The notes under the pieces: model-generated | Database searches by the model: none | The model's input: only the letters and a program-made list of their open reading frames with translations | Told to the model about the DNA's origin: nothing | Assembly: GCA_029784575.1 (NCBI GenBank) | Contig: JAJEUB010000001.1 | Coordinates: forward strand, 29,699-53,698 | Direction of reading: 5' to 3' | DNA: 24,000 nucleotides | Source of the DNA: Wolbachia endosymbiont of Penenirmus auritus | GTDB lineage: Bacteria; Pseudomonadota; Alphaproteobacteria; Rickettsiales; Anaplasmataceae | Shown here: positions 2,307 through 8,017 of the stretch, one piece after another | Position numbering within the stretch: position 1 is the first letter of the stretch | Layout: each line of letters begins with the position of its first letter | Translations under genes and position numbers: made by a program

Positions 2307-2647
2307 GAATAAAGCTTCAAACTTAAATTAAATTCAACTTTTTTTGGTAACCCACAAGGGAAAAATGACGTTCGCTTTTCTTCAAAACGAGTAATTACAA
2401 ATCGTCCTAAAACATTTCCCATGCCATCAACTAAAGTGCGGGGTATTTGATTTGCTTCTGCTTCTTTCATATTCTTTAATTCACTTAAATTATTAAGATA
2501 AATAACCCCTTCTAGGTCTATATTTTCTGCCCCTCTACCAATGTTCTGTAGTGACTGCTTGCCAATACACTCAACCACACTCCAACGCTTCTCTTTGCTG
2601 TACTTTAAACTCGTTGGAGAAATTTTATATGGACCAAGGGATAACAT
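2303..2647 (-). CDS. gpU: tail protein U (P2 gpU-like)
   Basis: 114 aa. The C-terminal GRFVITRFEEKRTSFFPCGLPKKVEFNLSLK resembles gpU. Sits between tape measure and X/D as in P2-type tails. Confidence 0.8.
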   Translation of the reverse strand: MLSLGPYKISPTSLKYSKEKRWSVVECIGKQSLQNIGRGAENIDLEGVIYLNNLSELKNMKEAEANQIPRTLVDGMGNVLGRFVITRFEEKRTSFFPCGLPKKVEFNLSLKLYS

Positions 2648-5085
2648 TAGTAAATTGGATCTACGGTATCAAACATAACATCTCTTGATTTTTCTCTTAT
2701 TCTTTTTATTACTTCATCTGCAAGGCTACGGACATCTTGATTTGGCTCTGCTTTAATATTGATATGATAATTATTAGTGATGTGTTGAGTTTTATTTAAA
2801 ATCTTTTGTTCTTTATTCTCAAATTTGCTCTTTGCAAAATCTGCTATTATCTTATCATTTTCTGTAGACTTTTTCTCCCCAATAAGGCTTTTATTATTCT
2901 TTCTTCTTTCAGCCATTTCTTTCATTATACTGCTACTTAGCAAAGGATTTCCATTACTGAGAATGTTGCTATTTATGGGAGTATGGACCGCCTTTATTTT
3001 AGTAACAACACTTTCTCTTTTTTCAAACTCTTTAACTGGGCTATTTTCAGATACTTTTCCAAATATACTGCCGACAATATTTCCCATCCATGAGAACATC
3101 TCTCCAATGGGTTTTATTATCGATTTTATATACTCCCAAATACTAGAGAAAAAGTTCTTCACCTTCTTCCAGTTAGCTATCACAACTGCTGCACCAGTGA
3201 CCAGCCCGGCAATTAAAAGCCCTATAGGGTTACTGATTACAGCAAGTGTTACTGCTCTGAGTCCTGTTACCACTGCAGGTAAAACTGATGATAGCATAGG
3301 AAAAGCTCTTGTTGCTAAACTCAAAGTTGTAGCTTTTAAAAAACTCAGTCCAGTAATTACCGCTGGAATAGCATATGTTGACAATGATATTATTGTCGGC
3401 AGAAATCCGTGCAAAGCAACTGAGAAAGCGAGCATTCCCCCTCTAATTAAATTCCATGCATAACCACCACTCACTATTAGAACTTTAAGACCTACTAGTG
3501 CTGTTATGATACTCATTATTGTTGTAGTAATAAACGGACACTTTTCCGCAAGCCAAGCTATGGGTTGGGTTATCTTTCTTAAAAGACTACTTACCCATTT
3601 TAAAGGAGGTAGCATTACTGAGCCCAGGTTCATTCCCACCTCTGCTATCGCATTCCTAAGTAACCGTAAATTATTTGCTGTAGTTGCTGCACGGTTGTTA
3701 AACTCTTTTTGCATGGACTGTTTAAATTCTTCCTCATCAGCTAAATTCTTTATGGCATCTTTATAATTCTTTAAGCTCCCAACTAGTAACGCAATATCAT
3801 CCTGATATTCTTGACCAAACAGATCTAGAAGAATTTGCGAACGTTCCTGTTTATCTACTTTTTCCAGAGTTTCAAAAAAATAAATTAGTGCATCTTGGCC
3901 ATTTTGGCTAATTCTTTGGGTCATCTCTTCTGCGGTTATTCCCATATCTTCCAGTGCTGCTTTGAACTCTTTGCCTTGTCCCTCAGCGGTCTGAAGTTTA
4001 CTAAGTAGAGCATTTATTGCAGTTGCTGCTTTTGCTGGTTGTTTGCCTAGGCTAATGAAGGCATTTACTAAACCACTTGTTTCCTTGATATCAAGACCAA
4101 ACTGTTTTGCAGTACCACCAACTATAGCAAGCGCTTTAACCATATCTCCTGCCTTAGCAGCACTATTATCTGACAGGTGATTTATAATGTCACCCACTCT
4201 TTCCATTTCTGCTACTTCAATTCCATAAACATTGGCAAGTTTAGCTATAGAATCACCTGCTTCTTCTGCAGACATATCAAACGCTGTAGCCATTTTAGAT
4301 ACTGTTTCTGTAAATGAAAGCAGTTTCTCTTTATTAATACCAAGTTGGCCACCACTTGCAGCTATTTGTGCTAACTCTGCAGCCGATAGTGGTATTGTAC
4401 GAGACATTTCCTTTAATTTCTGGCCAAATTCTGCGGCTTTTTCATTATGAATTGCATCATCCTTATCAAATTGCACTACTTTTTTAACATCAGCCATAGC
4501 ACTTTCAAAGTCAATCGCAACTTTAATTGGAGCTGCAAGTGTTAATGCAAGTCCAGCCGTCTCCAACATTTGCGATTTAAAGTGCGCTTTTCTCCCCAAA
4601 AACATGTCCCGTTTCTTGATAGCGGAATCTAACTTGGTATATTGACTTCTCAGCTTTTCTGCAGAAGCACCAAGTTTATATTGATCCTTTATCAGGGACT
4701 GAATATTTTTTCCACTTTTCCTTACTTCTTCACTGAATGCATGTAGAGCATCTCTCTTCTGCAAGTACGCTGCTTTGGCCTTCATTGCCGATTCTTTAGC
4801 TTTATCAAACTTGGCCTTCAAAGTTTTGCTTGGCTTTTCTGTGCTCTTTATCTGTTTAACTAAAGATGTTACTTGCTTTTCTAATTTGTTCCAGGATACC
4901 TTTGCTGTTAAAGCTCCATGTTTTAATTCCTTAAATTTTGATACCGATTTCATTGAGGCATCAAGTTGCTTTACTGTACTTCCAAGACGGGAAAGTTGAG
5001 CACTACTACCAGTCATTGTACTACTAAAGCTACCATCTAGTACCGCACCTATTTTTATTAATAATGATGGTTTGGTAGAAGTCAT
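2647..5085 (-). CDS. gpT: tail tape measure protein
   Basis: 812 aa with a coiled-coil N-terminus. Tape-measure core (SRTIPLSAAELAQIAASGGQLGI...MATAFDMSAEEAGDSIAKLANVYG) and long hydrophobic Gly/Ala/Leu segments. The listed ATG (5083-5085) lies inside the intron 3' helix, so the true start is uncertain. Confidence 0.9.
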   Translation of the reverse strand: MTSTKPSLLIKIGAVLDGSFSSTMTGSSAQLSRLGSTVKQLDASMKSVSKFKELKHGALTAKVSWNKLEKQVTSLVKQIKSTEKPSKTLKAKFDKAKESAMKAKAAYLQKRDALHAFSEEVRKSGKNIQSLIKDQYKLGASAEKLRSQYTKLDSAIKKRDMFLGRKAHFKSQMLETAGLALTLAAPIKVAIDFESAMADVKKVVQFDKDDAIHNEKAAEFGQKLKEMSRTIPLSAAELAQIAASGGQLGINKEKLLSFTETVSKMATAFDMSAEEAGDSIAKLANVYGIEVAEMERVGDIINHLSDNSAAKAGDMVKALAIVGGTAKQFGLDIKETSGLVNAFISLGKQPAKAATAINALLSKLQTAEGQGKEFKAALEDMGITAEEMTQRISQNGQDALIYFFETLEKVDKQERSQILLDLFGQEYQDDIALLVGSLKNYKDAIKNLADEEEFKQSMQKEFNNRAATTANNLRLLRNAIAEVGMNLGSVMLPPLKWVSSLLRKITQPIAWLAEKCPFITTTIMSIITALVGLKVLIVSGGYAWNLIRGGMLAFSVALHGFLPTIISLSTYAIPAVITGLSFLKATTLSLATRAFPMLSSVLPAVVTGLRAVTLAVISNPIGLLIAGLVTGAAVVIANWKKVKNFFSSIWEYIKSIIKPIGEMFSWMGNIVGSIFGKVSENSPVKEFEKRESVVTKIKAVHTPINSNILSNGNPLLSSSIMKEMAERRKNNKSLIGEKKSTENDKIIADFAKSKFENKEQKILNKTQHITNNYHINIKAEPNQDVRSLADEVIKRIREKSRDVMFDTVDPIY

Positions 5086-5132
5086 AATCCTGTCCCCCTT
5101 GCTTGGGTTTTATTTTTATGACTCCCCCACAA

Positions 5133-5165
5133 GAACCGTGCTTGCAACTTTCTTGCACACGGCTC
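5133..5165 (-). ncRNA. group II intron domain V (outer intron)
   Basis: GAGCCGTGTGCAAGAAAGTTGCAAGCACGGTTC. AGC triad, 8-bp lower stem GAGCCGUG/CACGGUUC, 2-nt AG bulge, upper stem UGCAA/UUGCA. Confidence 0.85.
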
Positions 5166-5184
5166 CACAATAATAGCGTGTCTG

Positions 5185-5833
5185 GTAGAGATCATAACTT
5201 TTAAATCCTCCTATTAGGTTTCACTGCTATGATCCCCCCAACAGAACCGTGCTTGCGATTTTCCCGCACACGGCTCTTCAGTGTAGCATTCACAGCATTT
5301 TTTTTAACTTCTGCTATTTGGTTTACTTTTCCTTGTCTCATATTCCAACCTCTGTTGTGATGGTGTAACAACCCATAAGCCAGTTTCTACACTGCTGACC
5401 ACTTCCCCTTGCATGTGGCTTTCCCACACTCTGAGTACTATCAACCAGTCCGACTTCCTTTATATCTTTCGTCAGTTCTCGCCTTTGTTGACTTGTCCCA
5501 ACGTACCTTAACAGGAATACAAAGGATCTCCCAAGTTTACGTAAACTCCATCTCAACACATGACACGGCCTCAGATCCCGATAGAGTGAATGATAACTTG
5601 CCTTATCGTTATCCTTCGTGCTGTCTTCCACTCCATGAAAAGTGTCGACCTCCATGATGTTGGTAATTTCGGGACTCAATACCTTCACTTTCGTTGCATC
5701 CTGTATTGTCCGTTCCATTAGCTTTACTACGCTCGTTACCTTACGTAGTATAATGGTCTGTTCTAGGCTGTTGGCTAGACTTTGCCTAGGTTGGATTTTC
5801 ACCAACTGAATTTACGCACTTTGCTTGGCGCAC
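5185..5833 (-). mobile_element. ORF-less group II intron derivative nested in domain IV of the outer intron
   Basis: A second GTGCGCCAAG 5' end at 5833, 14 nt after the RT stop. Second copy of the 5' domains, very similar by eye to 7646-7150. RT ORF reduced to a remnant (MRQGKVNQIA vs MQRKLNQIA). Own domain V at 5244-5276 and terminal helix ending ...ATGATCTCTAC at 5185. Confidence 0.65.
5244..5276 (-). ncRNA. group II intron domain V (inner intron)
   Basis: GAGCCGTGTGCGGGAAAATCGCAAGCACGGTTC. Same fold as the outer copy, with a compensatory A-U to G-C change in the upper stem. Confidence 0.85.
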
Positions 5834-5847
5834 TCACGATATACCTC

Positions 5848-7149
5848 CTATGTATATAAAGAAAAACATATTTTTGGCTTTGGTAGTGGATTGACTTGTG
5901 CGTAATGCTTAAATTGTTCCCAATTCATGCTCTTTTTCTGGCTACGCCGGTTTATCCACTTAAACGTTAGCTTCCTTACCGCCAGCTCGAACTTACTGAG
6001 CCATCGATAATTTCCGCTAATCCCGAAGTAGTTATAGTGTCCTCTTAGTTTAGCTTTTAGTATTTGCCACCAGTCTTTAAGACGAATATGATTACGAATC
6101 GTTTTTAACCATTCTTTGATTTCTTTGAGTTTCCTAGCTAGGCTCACTTTTGAGGTTTTATGCCCCATAATTAGCCTACCCTTACGACTCTTTGCACTGT
6201 AGTGTGTAAATCCTAGAAAATTGAAACTTTCTGTTTTCTTCTTCTCTCTCTTTGCCTGGTACCACTCCTTCTTGCCAAACTTTACTATCCTTGTTTTATT
6301 TTCAGCTACTTCCAAACCAAACTTGGCTAGTCTTTGTCTCAGTGCTTCTAGAGATTCTTTAGCGTCCTCCTCACTTTCACAGCACACCACAAGGTCATCT
6401 GCATACCTGACCAGCTCCATATATCCTTTAGACTTTGGTTTTACTTTCTTTTCAAACCATAGATCTAGTACATAATGTAGATATATGTTAGCTAATACTG
6501 GGCTTACTATTCCTCCCTGAGGTGCTCCTTGTGTAGTTGCCTCATAACGTCCAGCTTCCATAACTCCAGCTTTAAGGAATTGCTTTATTAACCACAATAG
6601 ATTTGGGTCAGATATTCGTTCCCTTAAACACCTCATTAGCCATTTATGCTGAATATTATCGTAGAACTTCTTTATGTCCACTTCCACAATGTAGTTTGTT
6701 GGCTTGTACATAACTGCTTTATCTAATGCTTTAACCGCTTGGTGACAACTTCTACCAGGTCGAAAACCATATGACTGGTCTAGAAAATTTGCCTCATATA
6801 TATTTTCCAATATTTTCTTTAGCACTATCTGTACCAGCTTATCCTCTGTCGATGGTATTCCGAGCCCGCGTTTTTCTTCGCTTCCAGCTTTTGGTATATA
6901 TACCCTTTTCACTGGTTGCGGTTGATATTGCTTTCTCTTCATACTATCCACCAGAATTTTAAGCTTCTCTTCAAGATTTTCTCCGTAGGCTTCTACTGTC
7001 ACCTGGTCTATACCGCAAGCCTTATTGCGTTTTAGTTCTTTATAACATAAGGCGAGATTTTCTGCATTTATCAGATGAACTAGTGATGTAAATTTCACTC
7101 GTTTATCCCGCTTCGCTCTTATCGCTATCTGGTTTAGTTTTCTTTGCAT
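5848..7149 (-). CDS. group II intron reverse transcriptase/maturase (no endonuclease domain)
   Basis: RT motifs GIPSTEDKLVQ, FRPGRSCHQA, QGAPQGGIVSPVLANIYL and YADD (VRYADDLVVCC), plus maturase X region (RGHYNYFG). Start taken at ATG 7149, preceded by GGAGGA. The protein ends right after the X domain. Confidence 0.92.
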   Translation of the reverse strand: MQRKLNQIAIRAKRDKRVKFTSLVHLINAENLALCYKELKRNKACGIDQVTVEAYGENLEEKLKILVDSMKRKQYQPQPVKRVYIPKAGSEEKRGLGIPSTEDKLVQIVLKKILENIYEANFLDQSYGFRPGRSCHQAVKALDKAVMYKPTNYIVEVDIKKFYDNIQHKWLMRCLRERISDPNLLWLIKQFLKAGVMEAGRYEATTQGAPQGGIVSPVLANIYLHYVLDLWFEKKVKPKSKGYMELVRYADDLVVCCESEEDAKESLEALRQRLAKFGLEVAENKTRIVKFGKKEWYQAKREKKKTESFNFLGFTHYSAKSRKGRLIMGHKTSKVSLARKLKEIKEWLKTIRNHIRLKDWWQILKAKLRGHYNYFGISGNYRWLSKFELAVRKLTFKWINRRSQKKSMNWEQFKHYAQVNPLPKPKICFSLYT

Positions 7150-7646
7150 ATTCCTCCAACCTCTGTTGTATTGGTATTGCAATCCCTATTCCAGTTGCTA
7201 TATTGCTGATCGCTTCCCCTTGTATGCGGCTTTCCCGCACTCTGAGTACTATCAATCAGTCCGACTTCCTTTGTATCTTTCGTTAGTCCTCGCCTTTGTT
7301 GACTTGTTCTCACGTACCTTAATAGGAATACAAAGGATCTCCCAAGTTCATTTAGAATCCATCTCAATACATGATACGGCCTACGATCCCGATGGAGTGA
7401 GTGATAACTTGCCTTGTCGTTATCCTTCATGCTGTCTTCCACTAAAATGCAAAATGTCGACCTCCATGATGTTGAAAATTTCGGGACTCAATACCTTCAC
7501 TTTCGTTGCACCCTGTATTGTCCATTCCATTAGCTTTACCACGCTCGTTACCTTACGCAGTATAATGGTTTGTTCTAGGCTGTTGGCTAGGCTTTGCCTA
7601 GGTTGGATTTTCACCAACTGTGTTCTCAACGCTTCTCTTGGCGCAC

Positions 7647-7790
7647 ACATTTAAATTTCTCCGCAGCTTTGGTCCACAAAATAAACTCGTCTATTTCCAT
7701 TTCAAGTATGTGTCCAATGCCACCTCCTGTTACGGAACTTAACATTAACACATTTAGTCTCAAATCCTTTATGTAACCGATGGAAAAAAA
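7647..7790 (-). other. -1 frame E' extension of gpE (gpE+E' frameshift product, exon-1 part) including T7 slippery run
   Basis: Seven consecutive T (minus strand, 7784-7790) in zero-frame GA T TTT TTT, four codons before the gpE stop. The -1 frame stays open for 46 codons (SIGYIKDLRLNVLMLSSVTGGGIGHILEMEIDEFILWTKAAEKFKC), exactly up to the intron 5' junction at 7647. Confidence 0.55.
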
Positions 7791-8017
7791 TCTTTCAACG
7801 CTTCCTGTATTTTTATGTAGTCTGTAAAGTATAATTCTAAAATGGTTTCTTTTGTAACCAATGCTAGATTAGCTATTAACCCTACCTCTTTTTCAAAGTC
7901 ACTACTACCAGCACGTTCCATTGCTAAGCAGTCTCTCACTTTAACTGGTCTAAAAGTTAATTCTGAAACCTCAATTCCATCTACTGTTATTGGGTGTTCA
8001 AGTTTTACTGTTTTCAT
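7769..8017 (-). CDS. gpE: tail assembly chaperone (P2 gpE-like)
   Basis: 82 aa. HPITVDGIEVSELTFRPVKVRDCLAMERAG...LIANLALVTKETILELYFTDY fits the gpE pattern. Located between the tube and tape measure genes. Confidence 0.75.
   Translation of the reverse strand: MKTVKLEHPITVDGIEVSELTFRPVKVRDCLAMERAGSSDFEKEVGLIANLALVTKETILELYFTDYIKIQEALKDFFPSVT

Follow-up and report, generated by a model that had tools for sequence, protein, structure and literature searches.

Twintrons, where a group II intron lies within another, are rare in bacteria but established, including in Wolbachia. In Thermosynechococcus elongatus, introns without an open reading frame (ORF) are inserted in domain IV (DIV) of relatives that encode a reverse transcriptase (RT), and their mobilisation in trans has been demonstrated (Mohr, Ghanem and Lambowitz 2010, PMC2882425). 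In Methanosarcina acetivorans related introns, including ORF-less ones, home site-specifically into group II introns (Dai and Zimmerly 2003); the summary of that work in a review (PMC4424553) gives up to five nesting levels and no coding flanking exons. For the Trichodesmium erythraeum twintron, which lies in a host gene, experiments showed that splicing is sequential (Pfreundt and Hess 2015, PMC4649490). According to PMC8919778, Zbase has an entry for a nested intron, or twintron, from a 'Wolbachia endosymbiont'. We report a further case, an ORF-less group II intron nested in an RT-encoding group II intron, in a WO prophage of the Wolbachia endosymbiont of Penenirmus auritus. The window analysed is a stretch of 24,000 nt (assembly GCA_029784575.1, contig JAJEUB010000001.1, positions 29,699 to 53,698) and positions are those of the window unless another contig is named.

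The arrangement resembles that of TeI3 in TeI4 of T. elongatus. There as here, a related intron's ORF-less deletion derivative has apparently retrohomed into the DIV of an RT-encoding intron, the ORF-less lineage is dispersed with one deletion junction, the exon-binding sites (EBS) have diverged to fit the new site, and an RT is expected to act in trans. The marks of the T. elongatus type, a deletion junction shared by dispersed copies and an EBS matched to each site, are both found here. The two differ in that the present insert, 14 nt past the stop codon, spares the ORF instead of lying inside it, and in that the composite interrupts a phage structural gene. The T. elongatus introns belong to another class, one with the endonuclease domain that the RT here lacks, and trans-mobilisation, demonstrated there, is proposed here from comparison of sequences. 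The Methanosarcina nests are deeper, whereas here two levels lie in a protein-coding gene. Like the T. erythraeum twintron, the present one is a bacterial group II twintron in a host gene; its DIV position, known from DNA, suggests no obligatory order of splicing, in contrast to the sequential splicing of T. erythraeum. Group II introns already described from Wolbachia are of the same genus and the same RT family (annotated RT/maturases of Wolbachia group II introns share 79-95% identity with the outer RT), and nesting has already been recorded among them. What distinguishes this locus is the insertion after the RT stop, the phage tail host gene and a history that is unusually clear from both empty sites and from solo copies.

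An earlier note, made from the letters alone, had read this region as a twintron with two GTGCGCC 5' ends (7646 and 5833), two sets of domain V (DV) and 3' end, and one RT. Its observation is partly confirmed: the nested arrangement is real, and corrections are needed to the boundaries and to EBS1. An Rfam covariance-model scan, the check that the note had proposed, matched the minus strand with two sets of ribozyme domains, each of them complete, and there is a single RT ORF. The parts of the composite, in the order in which the minus strand reads them (DI to DVI are the ribozyme domains), are as follows.

7647-7650, minus strand: the 4 nt that end exon 1, ATGT, made up of the tape measure start codon and 1 nt (from translation of the ligated exons, MSSLLIKIGAVLDG, and the WOVitA1 alignment)
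5070-7646, minus strand: outer RT-encoding group II intron, 2,577 nt (from Rfam, the same site in the Wolbachia of Atemnus politus and the WOVitA1 junction)
5848-7149, minus strand: RT/maturase ORF of 433 aa in the outer DIV (RVT_1, E 9e-43; TIGR04416, 384 bits against a cutoff of 300)
5834-5847, minus strand: the inner intron's 5' flank in the outer DIV, GAGGTATATCGTGA, contiguous with 5179-5166 in four uninterrupted relatives
5180-5833, minus strand: inner ORF-less group II intron, 654 nt, with DI-DIII, a DIV stub, DV (5276-5243) and DVI (from Rfam and solo homologues)
5310-5341, minus strand: RT ORF remnant in the inner DIV, an ATG (5341) and about 10 homologous codons followed by the deletion junction (from alignment to the start of the outer ORF)
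5166-5179, minus strand: 3' flank of the inner intron and end of the outer DIV, ACGCTATTATTGTG, colinear with uninterrupted relatives
5070-5165, minus strand: outer DV (5165-5132) and DVI (Rfam RF00029 match at 5167-5070, 50.5 bits)
2647-5069, minus strand: exon 2, the body of the tail tape measure protein gene (Pfam PhageMin_Tail, E 4e-43; alignment to the WOVitA1 tape measure)

The nesting is most directly seen in relatives that lack the insert. Four of them (L001, L003, L115 and L116) have the uninterrupted inner site TATCGTGA/ACGCTATT (...AGGAGGTATATCGTGA/ACGCTATTATTGT...), where the slash marks the insertion point. In L001, the Wolbachia of Atemnus politus (wApol), DIV reads ...GGTGTATCGTGAACGCTATTATTGTGGAGCC, exactly the sequence obtained when window 5847-5834 is continued at 5179. 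The 654-nt insertion has thus left its flanks complete and caused no duplication in them. One intron lies wholly within the other with precise boundaries, at a distance of 14 nt both from the RT stop codon before it and from the outer DV after it, and the uninterrupted outer intron is known.

The 3' ends had been placed in the earlier note at the CTAC of each terminal helix (5185 and 5075). They actually lie 5 nt further on, at 5180 and 5070, and CTAC holds the branch-point A. The correction is based on the Rfam alignment, the empty inner site of L001 and the intronless WOVitA1 allele; an outer boundary at 5075 would leave 5 extra bases and a frameshift in the ligated exons. With the corrected boundary the distance from the inner 3' end to the outer DV, given before as 19 nt, becomes 14 nt. 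The comparison of the flanks with the uninterrupted inner sequence, which had been offered in support of nesting, improves to GTGA/ACGCTA against GTGAATGCTA, with 9 of 10 matches and no gap.

The outer intron runs from GTGCGCC at 7646 (GTGCG) to ...CUACCAAAC (...AAAC) at 5070, and its branch point is the bulged A of CUAC at 5076, 6 nt before the last intron base. The RT had been described as intact, and it is: the protein is full length with an intact YADD motif and without an endonuclease domain, and LtrA is its best PDB match. An exact-protein look-up of its 433-aa and 444-aa forms found neither on record. The insertion point, ATGT/CA, is 4 nt into the tape measure gene and at the same time falls among the final codons that frameshifting adds to the tail assembly chaperone gene upstream. 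Exons joined at 7647 and 5069 read ...GGAGAAATTTAAATGT/CATCATTATTAAT... and align without a gap to the intronless phage WOVitA1 (ATGT/CATCATT), in which the tape measure coding sequence is annotated; the ligated exons open the tape measure ORF at its ATG (MSSLLIK...). In wApol this tape measure site is likewise occupied by the outer intron, 96-99% identical and with a single Rfam set.

The wApol copy (L001 1694-1700, minus strand) lacks one C at its 3' junction (CTACCAAA-CATCATT) in comparison with window 5070-5075. Its intron tail may be 1 nt shorter; otherwise, splicing after ...AAAC would shift the tape measure frame. The loss may mark a decaying copy or a sequencing error.

Both introns are predicted to fold as complete ribozymes. 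The Rfam model group-II-D1D4-6 (RF02005) matches the outer copy full-length at 7611-7377 (132 bits, E 1e-37) and the inner copy at 5799-5566 (model 1-225/225, 137 bits, E 3e-39), and RF00029 matches the inner DV and DVI at 5278-5180 (55 bits). A consensus of DI-DIVa was computed with RNAalifold from eight lineages (the two window copies and six relatives). It has the standard DI/DII/DIII/DIVa layout with 152 pairs, 47 of them with compensatory changes. The outer intron keeps 149/152 of these pairs and the inner one 145/152, against 143-152 in the RT-bearing relatives. The inner intron starts with GTGCGCC at 5833 (GTGCG) and ends ...CUACCAGAC (...AGAC) at 5180, with its branch A at 5186. The earlier note had named the lack of a complete DI-DVI set in the inner element as the observation that would count against nesting; the pairs kept, the DV/DVI match, the GUGCG start and the branch A make up such a set.

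The 5' halves of the two copies align colinearly for about 490 nt at about 88% identity and differ in length by single-base indels only, in agreement with the second copy of the 5' domains that had been seen by eye. Over the whole length identity is about 87%, and the divergence of about 13% is spread throughout. Seven of the differences are double changes that preserve a pair. The compensatory changes noted before in DV and the terminal helix are likewise borne out by the alignments: an A-U pair becomes G-C in DV, and at two stacked pairs of DVI G-C/A-U becomes A-U/G-C. The RT remnant of about 10 codons in the inner copy does consist of N-terminal codons, starting from the ATG at 5341. The DIV/DV/DVI end of the inner copy is closest to the sublineage L004, at 83%.

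Solo copies of the inner element were sought with a spurious ORF that gene callers place over DI as the query. Two were found, both located at ordinary gene starts and both aligned across all 654 nt: one in the Wolbachia of Cylisticus convexus (L117, positions 8-649, 91.9% identical) and one in the Wolbachia of Armadillidium vulgare (L118, 2918-3568, 91.5% identical). The latter sits where an inorganic pyrophosphatase gene begins, after AAGAGGTAATTTATGG/, and the ligated ORF is of 168 aa. The junction of the ORF deletion is identical in the window copy, L117 and L118, which implies that the ORF was lost once and that the ORF-less lineage later moved between sites and strains. Judged from these alignments, the inner element belongs to a dispersed ORF-less sister lineage and is not a copy of the outer intron. 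The earlier description of an ORF-less derivative inserted into the outer DIV thus holds as to the missing ORF and the position, and fails as to the origin, since a sister lineage diverged by about 13% does not derive from the outer copy.

The targets of the two introns were examined in an alignment of the 5' parts and flanks of 17 intron copies, and segments that covary with the 5' exon were taken as EBS. There are two such segments, a DI hairpin loop (EBS1) and a block of 4 nt after GAAAU (EBS2). The EBS2 block covaries with exon positions -12 to -9 or -13 to -10 in nine lineages, with 4/4 pairs in seven and 3/4 in two. The stem and loop of the outer EBS1 were taken from the Rfam and RNAalifold structures. 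The sites and their intron-binding sites (IBS) are listed here.

7474-7477, minus strand: outer EBS2, UUUC, pairing with GAAA at exon positions -13 to -10 (IBS2, 7659-7656)
7445-7450, minus strand: outer EBS1, GCAUUU in a hairpin loop, pairing with AAAUGU (IBS1, 7652-7647), with G.U at -1
5662-5665, minus strand: inner EBS2, UACC, pairing with GGUA in the outer DIV (IBS2 GGTA, 5845-5842)
5633-5638, minus strand: inner EBS1, UCAUGG, pairing with UCGUGA in the outer DIV (IBS1 TCGTGA, 5839-5834)

Each intron fits its own site better than the other's. EBS1 and EBS2 of the outer intron form 10/10 pairs on their own exon against 6/10 at the inner site, and those of the inner intron 10/10 at their own DIV site (including 6/6 for EBS1, 4 Watson-Crick and 2 G.U) against 5/10 at the outer exon. 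The DI differences between the two window copies are concentrated in these segments. EBS1 also varies among the ORF-less copies and fits the target of each: CCATAT (for TTATGG, L118) and TCATAT (for ATATGG) match the sites of the solo copies, and their EBS2 UGCC pairs with GGUA. Among other relatives the pairings of EBS1 and exon are GCATTTT with AAAATGC (L072), ACATTT with AAATGT (L001/wApol and wStri) and TCATA with TATGA (L004). The earlier note had offered ACATTT (7457-7452) as the outer EBS1. It is complementary to AAATGT, the last exon bases, but the relatives place EBS1 at the adjacent loop GCATTT (7450-7445); ACATTT lies just 5' of that loop and partly in its stem. It is probably the wrong one of two adjacent candidates.

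From this evidence we consider it very probable that the locus is a group II twintron produced by two separate retromobility events in a Wolbachia WO prophage. The twintron interpretation of the earlier note is supported by the empty sites, the solo ORF-less copies and the match of the inner EBS to the DIV site. In the first event the RT-encoding, endonuclease-less intron (7646-5070) would have entered the tape measure gene at ATGT/CA. In a second, later event the 654-nt ORF-less intron of the sister lineage (5833-5180) would have reverse-spliced into the outer DIV. The site of the second event, AGGAGGTATATCGTGA/A, is complementary to the inner EBS1 and EBS2 and resembles the usual sites of the lineage, a Shine-Dalgarno-like tract followed by a start codon and 1 nt.

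The inner intron has no RT and would therefore depend on an RT/maturase in trans. The outer intron, with its RT ORF 14 nt upstream, offers the simplest candidate. The inner intron retains the DIVa stem and the ORF start region, the place where the RT/maturase binds in studied introns. Both ribozymes look intact. Because the insert occupies the DIV loop, as the ORF does, its prior removal is probably not needed for folding and splicing of the outer intron. The anatomy does not imply an obligatory or stepwise order, and hybrid splicing from the outer 5' splice site to the inner 3' splice site may be conceivable. Clean removal of the outer intron should restore both the tape measure start and the chaperone extension. 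As to mobility, endonuclease-less group II introns prime reverse transcription from replication forks, according to a review (PMC4424553).

Several points weigh against this reading. The splicing of either intron, its order and the action of the RT in trans are all predictions. The nested state occurs in one assembly only: L103, a contig in the public assembly GCA_902646985.2, matches window 17296-6500 at 99.8% identity but stops within the RT, and it cannot confirm the nesting. The pairing of the outer EBS1 includes the G.U at position -1. No EBS3/IBS3 partner was identified; an EBS3 or delta partner of the first 3'-exon base was sought among the columns that differ between copies, and none covaried. 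Among the copies found, none of the inner lineage is closer than 92% and none is an RT-bearing parent of that lineage. The wApol copy is one base short at its 3' junction, which makes its 3' splice site ambiguous.

Other histories could give two similar introns in one place. Unequal crossing-over between intron copies, or a duplication followed by deletion of one ORF, would draw on the many similar copies in Wolbachia genomes (nine loci in the wStri assembly, for example), which are substrates for recombination, and the two window copies have long identical stretches in common. The junctions here fall exactly at the first and last intron nucleotides and not within shared sequence, and the flanks rejoin to the uninterrupted sequence of four relatives. 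The copies also differ by about 13% along their whole length, a solo ORF-less element with the same deletion junction exists in other genomes, and the inner EBS1 and EBS2 fit the DIV site. Such a DNA rearrangement is already strongly disfavoured, and we regard it as very unlikely.

An error of assembly, in which reads of a separate ORF-less intron were joined into the RT-encoding one, is suggested by the behaviour of these repeats in short-read data: L103, nearly identical to the window, stops within the RT ORF, and the majority of related RT contigs reach a length of only about 2 kb. Chimeric joins fall in shared k-mers, but both joins here lie at exact intron termini in DIV sequence that is specific to the outer copy and has no counterpart at that position in the inner one. 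The inner EBS sequences are complementary to precisely this flank and the window sits in a contig of 55.6 kb, so that an artefact is highly improbable. The two DV/DVI modules, 14 nt apart on the same strand, also recall the single introns of the Clostridium tetani C.te.I1 type, in which DV/DVI repeats without DI-DIII each precede an alternative exon ORF and serve alternative 3' splice sites; the conceivable hybrid use of the outer 5' and inner 3' splice sites would suit such an arrangement. In the present locus, however, the upstream module has its own complete DI-DIII and 5' GUGCG, no alternative ORF follows 5180, and the 654-nt unit occurs elsewhere as an independent intron. A C.te.I1-like intron is accordingly extremely improbable, and we retain the twintron formed by two insertions.

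An RT-based genome scan yielded 79 loci, and none of the Wolbachia ones is nested. Against the phage collection, megablast of 4900-7800 had no match and tblastn of the RT gave only matches below 47% identity. A scan of IMG/VR with the inner EBS1 hairpin (28 nt, exact) found no match. Matches there to the junction ATCGTGAGTGCGCCAAG, at 21 loci, were discarded as chance; they are in high-GC phage coding sequence without intron similarity. A second twintron was considered at L013, in a metagenome-assembled genome of Rickettsiaceae, where the target resembles the DIV site; it was rejected because Rfam shows a single intron. The resemblance reflects a shared gene-start-like target.

Every copy of the lineage examined follows a purine-rich Shine-Dalgarno-like tract, then ATG, GTG or TTG, and then 1 nt. 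This applies to the Wolbachia copies and to L003, L004, L006-L014, L072, L104-L114, L117 and L118. One identical intron occupies 11 sites in a Rickettsiales-like metagenome assembly, including the nuoB start and a site in a tra operon. Exon 1 of the present locus has its Shine-Dalgarno GGAG at 7662-7659. The target of the inner intron, AGGAGGTATATCGTGAACGCTA, mimics a gene start as well: its 5' flank with the preceding TAG reads AGGAGG-N7-GTG-A. Specialised insertion at the translation start codons of real genes is also known from the IIB1 lineage, which inserts at start and stop codons (Michel et al. 2007, in the account of PMC12584367). That account gives the IIB1 introns a 5'-subterminal DI insertion of 300-700 nt, which is absent here, where DI-DIII measures about 450 nt and pairing begins at intron position 6; in addition, the RT here has no endonuclease domain. 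Gammaproteobacterial relatives, with an RT identity of 41%, do not use start codons but GCGTTA/, after which they are inserted, and start-codon targeting is therefore not general to the RF02005-type group. The contig L024 of Celerinatantimonas yamalensis (1226-1433, 3518-3774 and 7645-7932) has two distantly related group II introns, each following GCGTTA/, and at a distance of about 2 kb from them a match to group I introns (RF00028, 59 bits).

The outer DVI itself carries a Shine-Dalgarno-like AAGGGGGA and an ATG (5085-5083), whose distance to the 3' splice site is 16 nt. As 16 and 4 are equal modulo 3, translation from this ATG would enter exon 2 in frame. A Shine-Dalgarno-like tract with an ATG at -16 in DVI is present in all sublineages examined except wStri/WOLB0025. 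Gene callers start the downstream genes at this intron-borne ATG; in the window the tape measure ORF of 812 aa begins at 5085 in the ORF list. One tentative possibility is that the twintron is a by-product of a specialised Rickettsiales/Wolbachia lineage that targets initiation regions and brings a replacement start in DVI, with the DIV site serving as a gene-start mimic or as a real re-initiation site. If that were so, an invaded gene could be translated from the intron-borne start, with 4 additional residues, even without splicing, and at this locus the extended chaperone frame would lose only its last 3 residues.

After the RT stop, AGGAGG-N7-GTG opens a frame of about 33 codons (5850-5834 plus 5179-5082, uninterrupted in L001, L115 and L004) that crosses DV and DVI and ends at a TGA overlapping the DVI ATG (ATGA). 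Comparable frames that end at or just before the DVI ATG are present in L004, L013 and the ORF-less lineage. The frame could be due to chance, DV being stop-free in every frame, or could act as a translational relay.

Some copies elsewhere have been altered by other DNA. The wStur copy (L003 224-355) has a DI insertion of about 132 nt in comparison with all other copies, which resembles a small inserted element. In L116 (273-1610) an IS110-family transposase gene adjoins the RT start, and the intron copy is broken by mobile DNA. In two loci of the assembly of the Tribolium confusum Wolbachia (L072 and L073, beyond 4208) the RT similarity stops after about 208 nt, and mobile DNA has disrupted these copies too.

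The window belongs to a Wolbachia WO prophage, whose P2-like tail module is on the minus strand. The members of the module other than the tape measure gene are these.

10547-9345, minus strand: sheath
9297-8791, minus strand: tube
between the tube and the tail assembly chaperone: ParE-type toxin pair
7769-8017, minus strand: tail assembly chaperone, P2 gpE-like (Pfam Phage_TAC_7, E 2e-15)
after the tape measure gene: gpU, gpD and an ankyrin-repeat gene

The chaperone gene has a T7 slippery run at 7790-7784, from which the -1 frame (E') continues to the intron insertion site. Over the ligated exons a three-frame translation ends this frame as ...KFKC/HHY and a stop; in the unspliced state it would end ...KFKCVRQEKR instead of ...KFKCHHY. 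The toxin pair consists of a ParE-family ORF at 8458-8168 and a small overlapping upstream ORF at 8682-8434 without a Pfam match. The gpD-like (tail late control D) ORF at 1146-1829 has only 227 aa, covers the C-terminal part of the Pfam model (81-302/305) and may be truncated.

At this locus the tape measure gene and the end of the chaperone frameshift extension are interrupted by 2.6 kb of nested ribozymes, and tail assembly would need splicing or the intron-borne start. The nesting is a datable case, with the outer copy 96-99% identical to one that is free of the insert. It would show an ORF-less lineage spreading between Wolbachia strains and into the DIV of a relative that encodes the RT it needs. 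The preference for gene starts, with an in-frame Shine-Dalgarno and ATG in DVI, could prove to be the more interesting result, if it is new.

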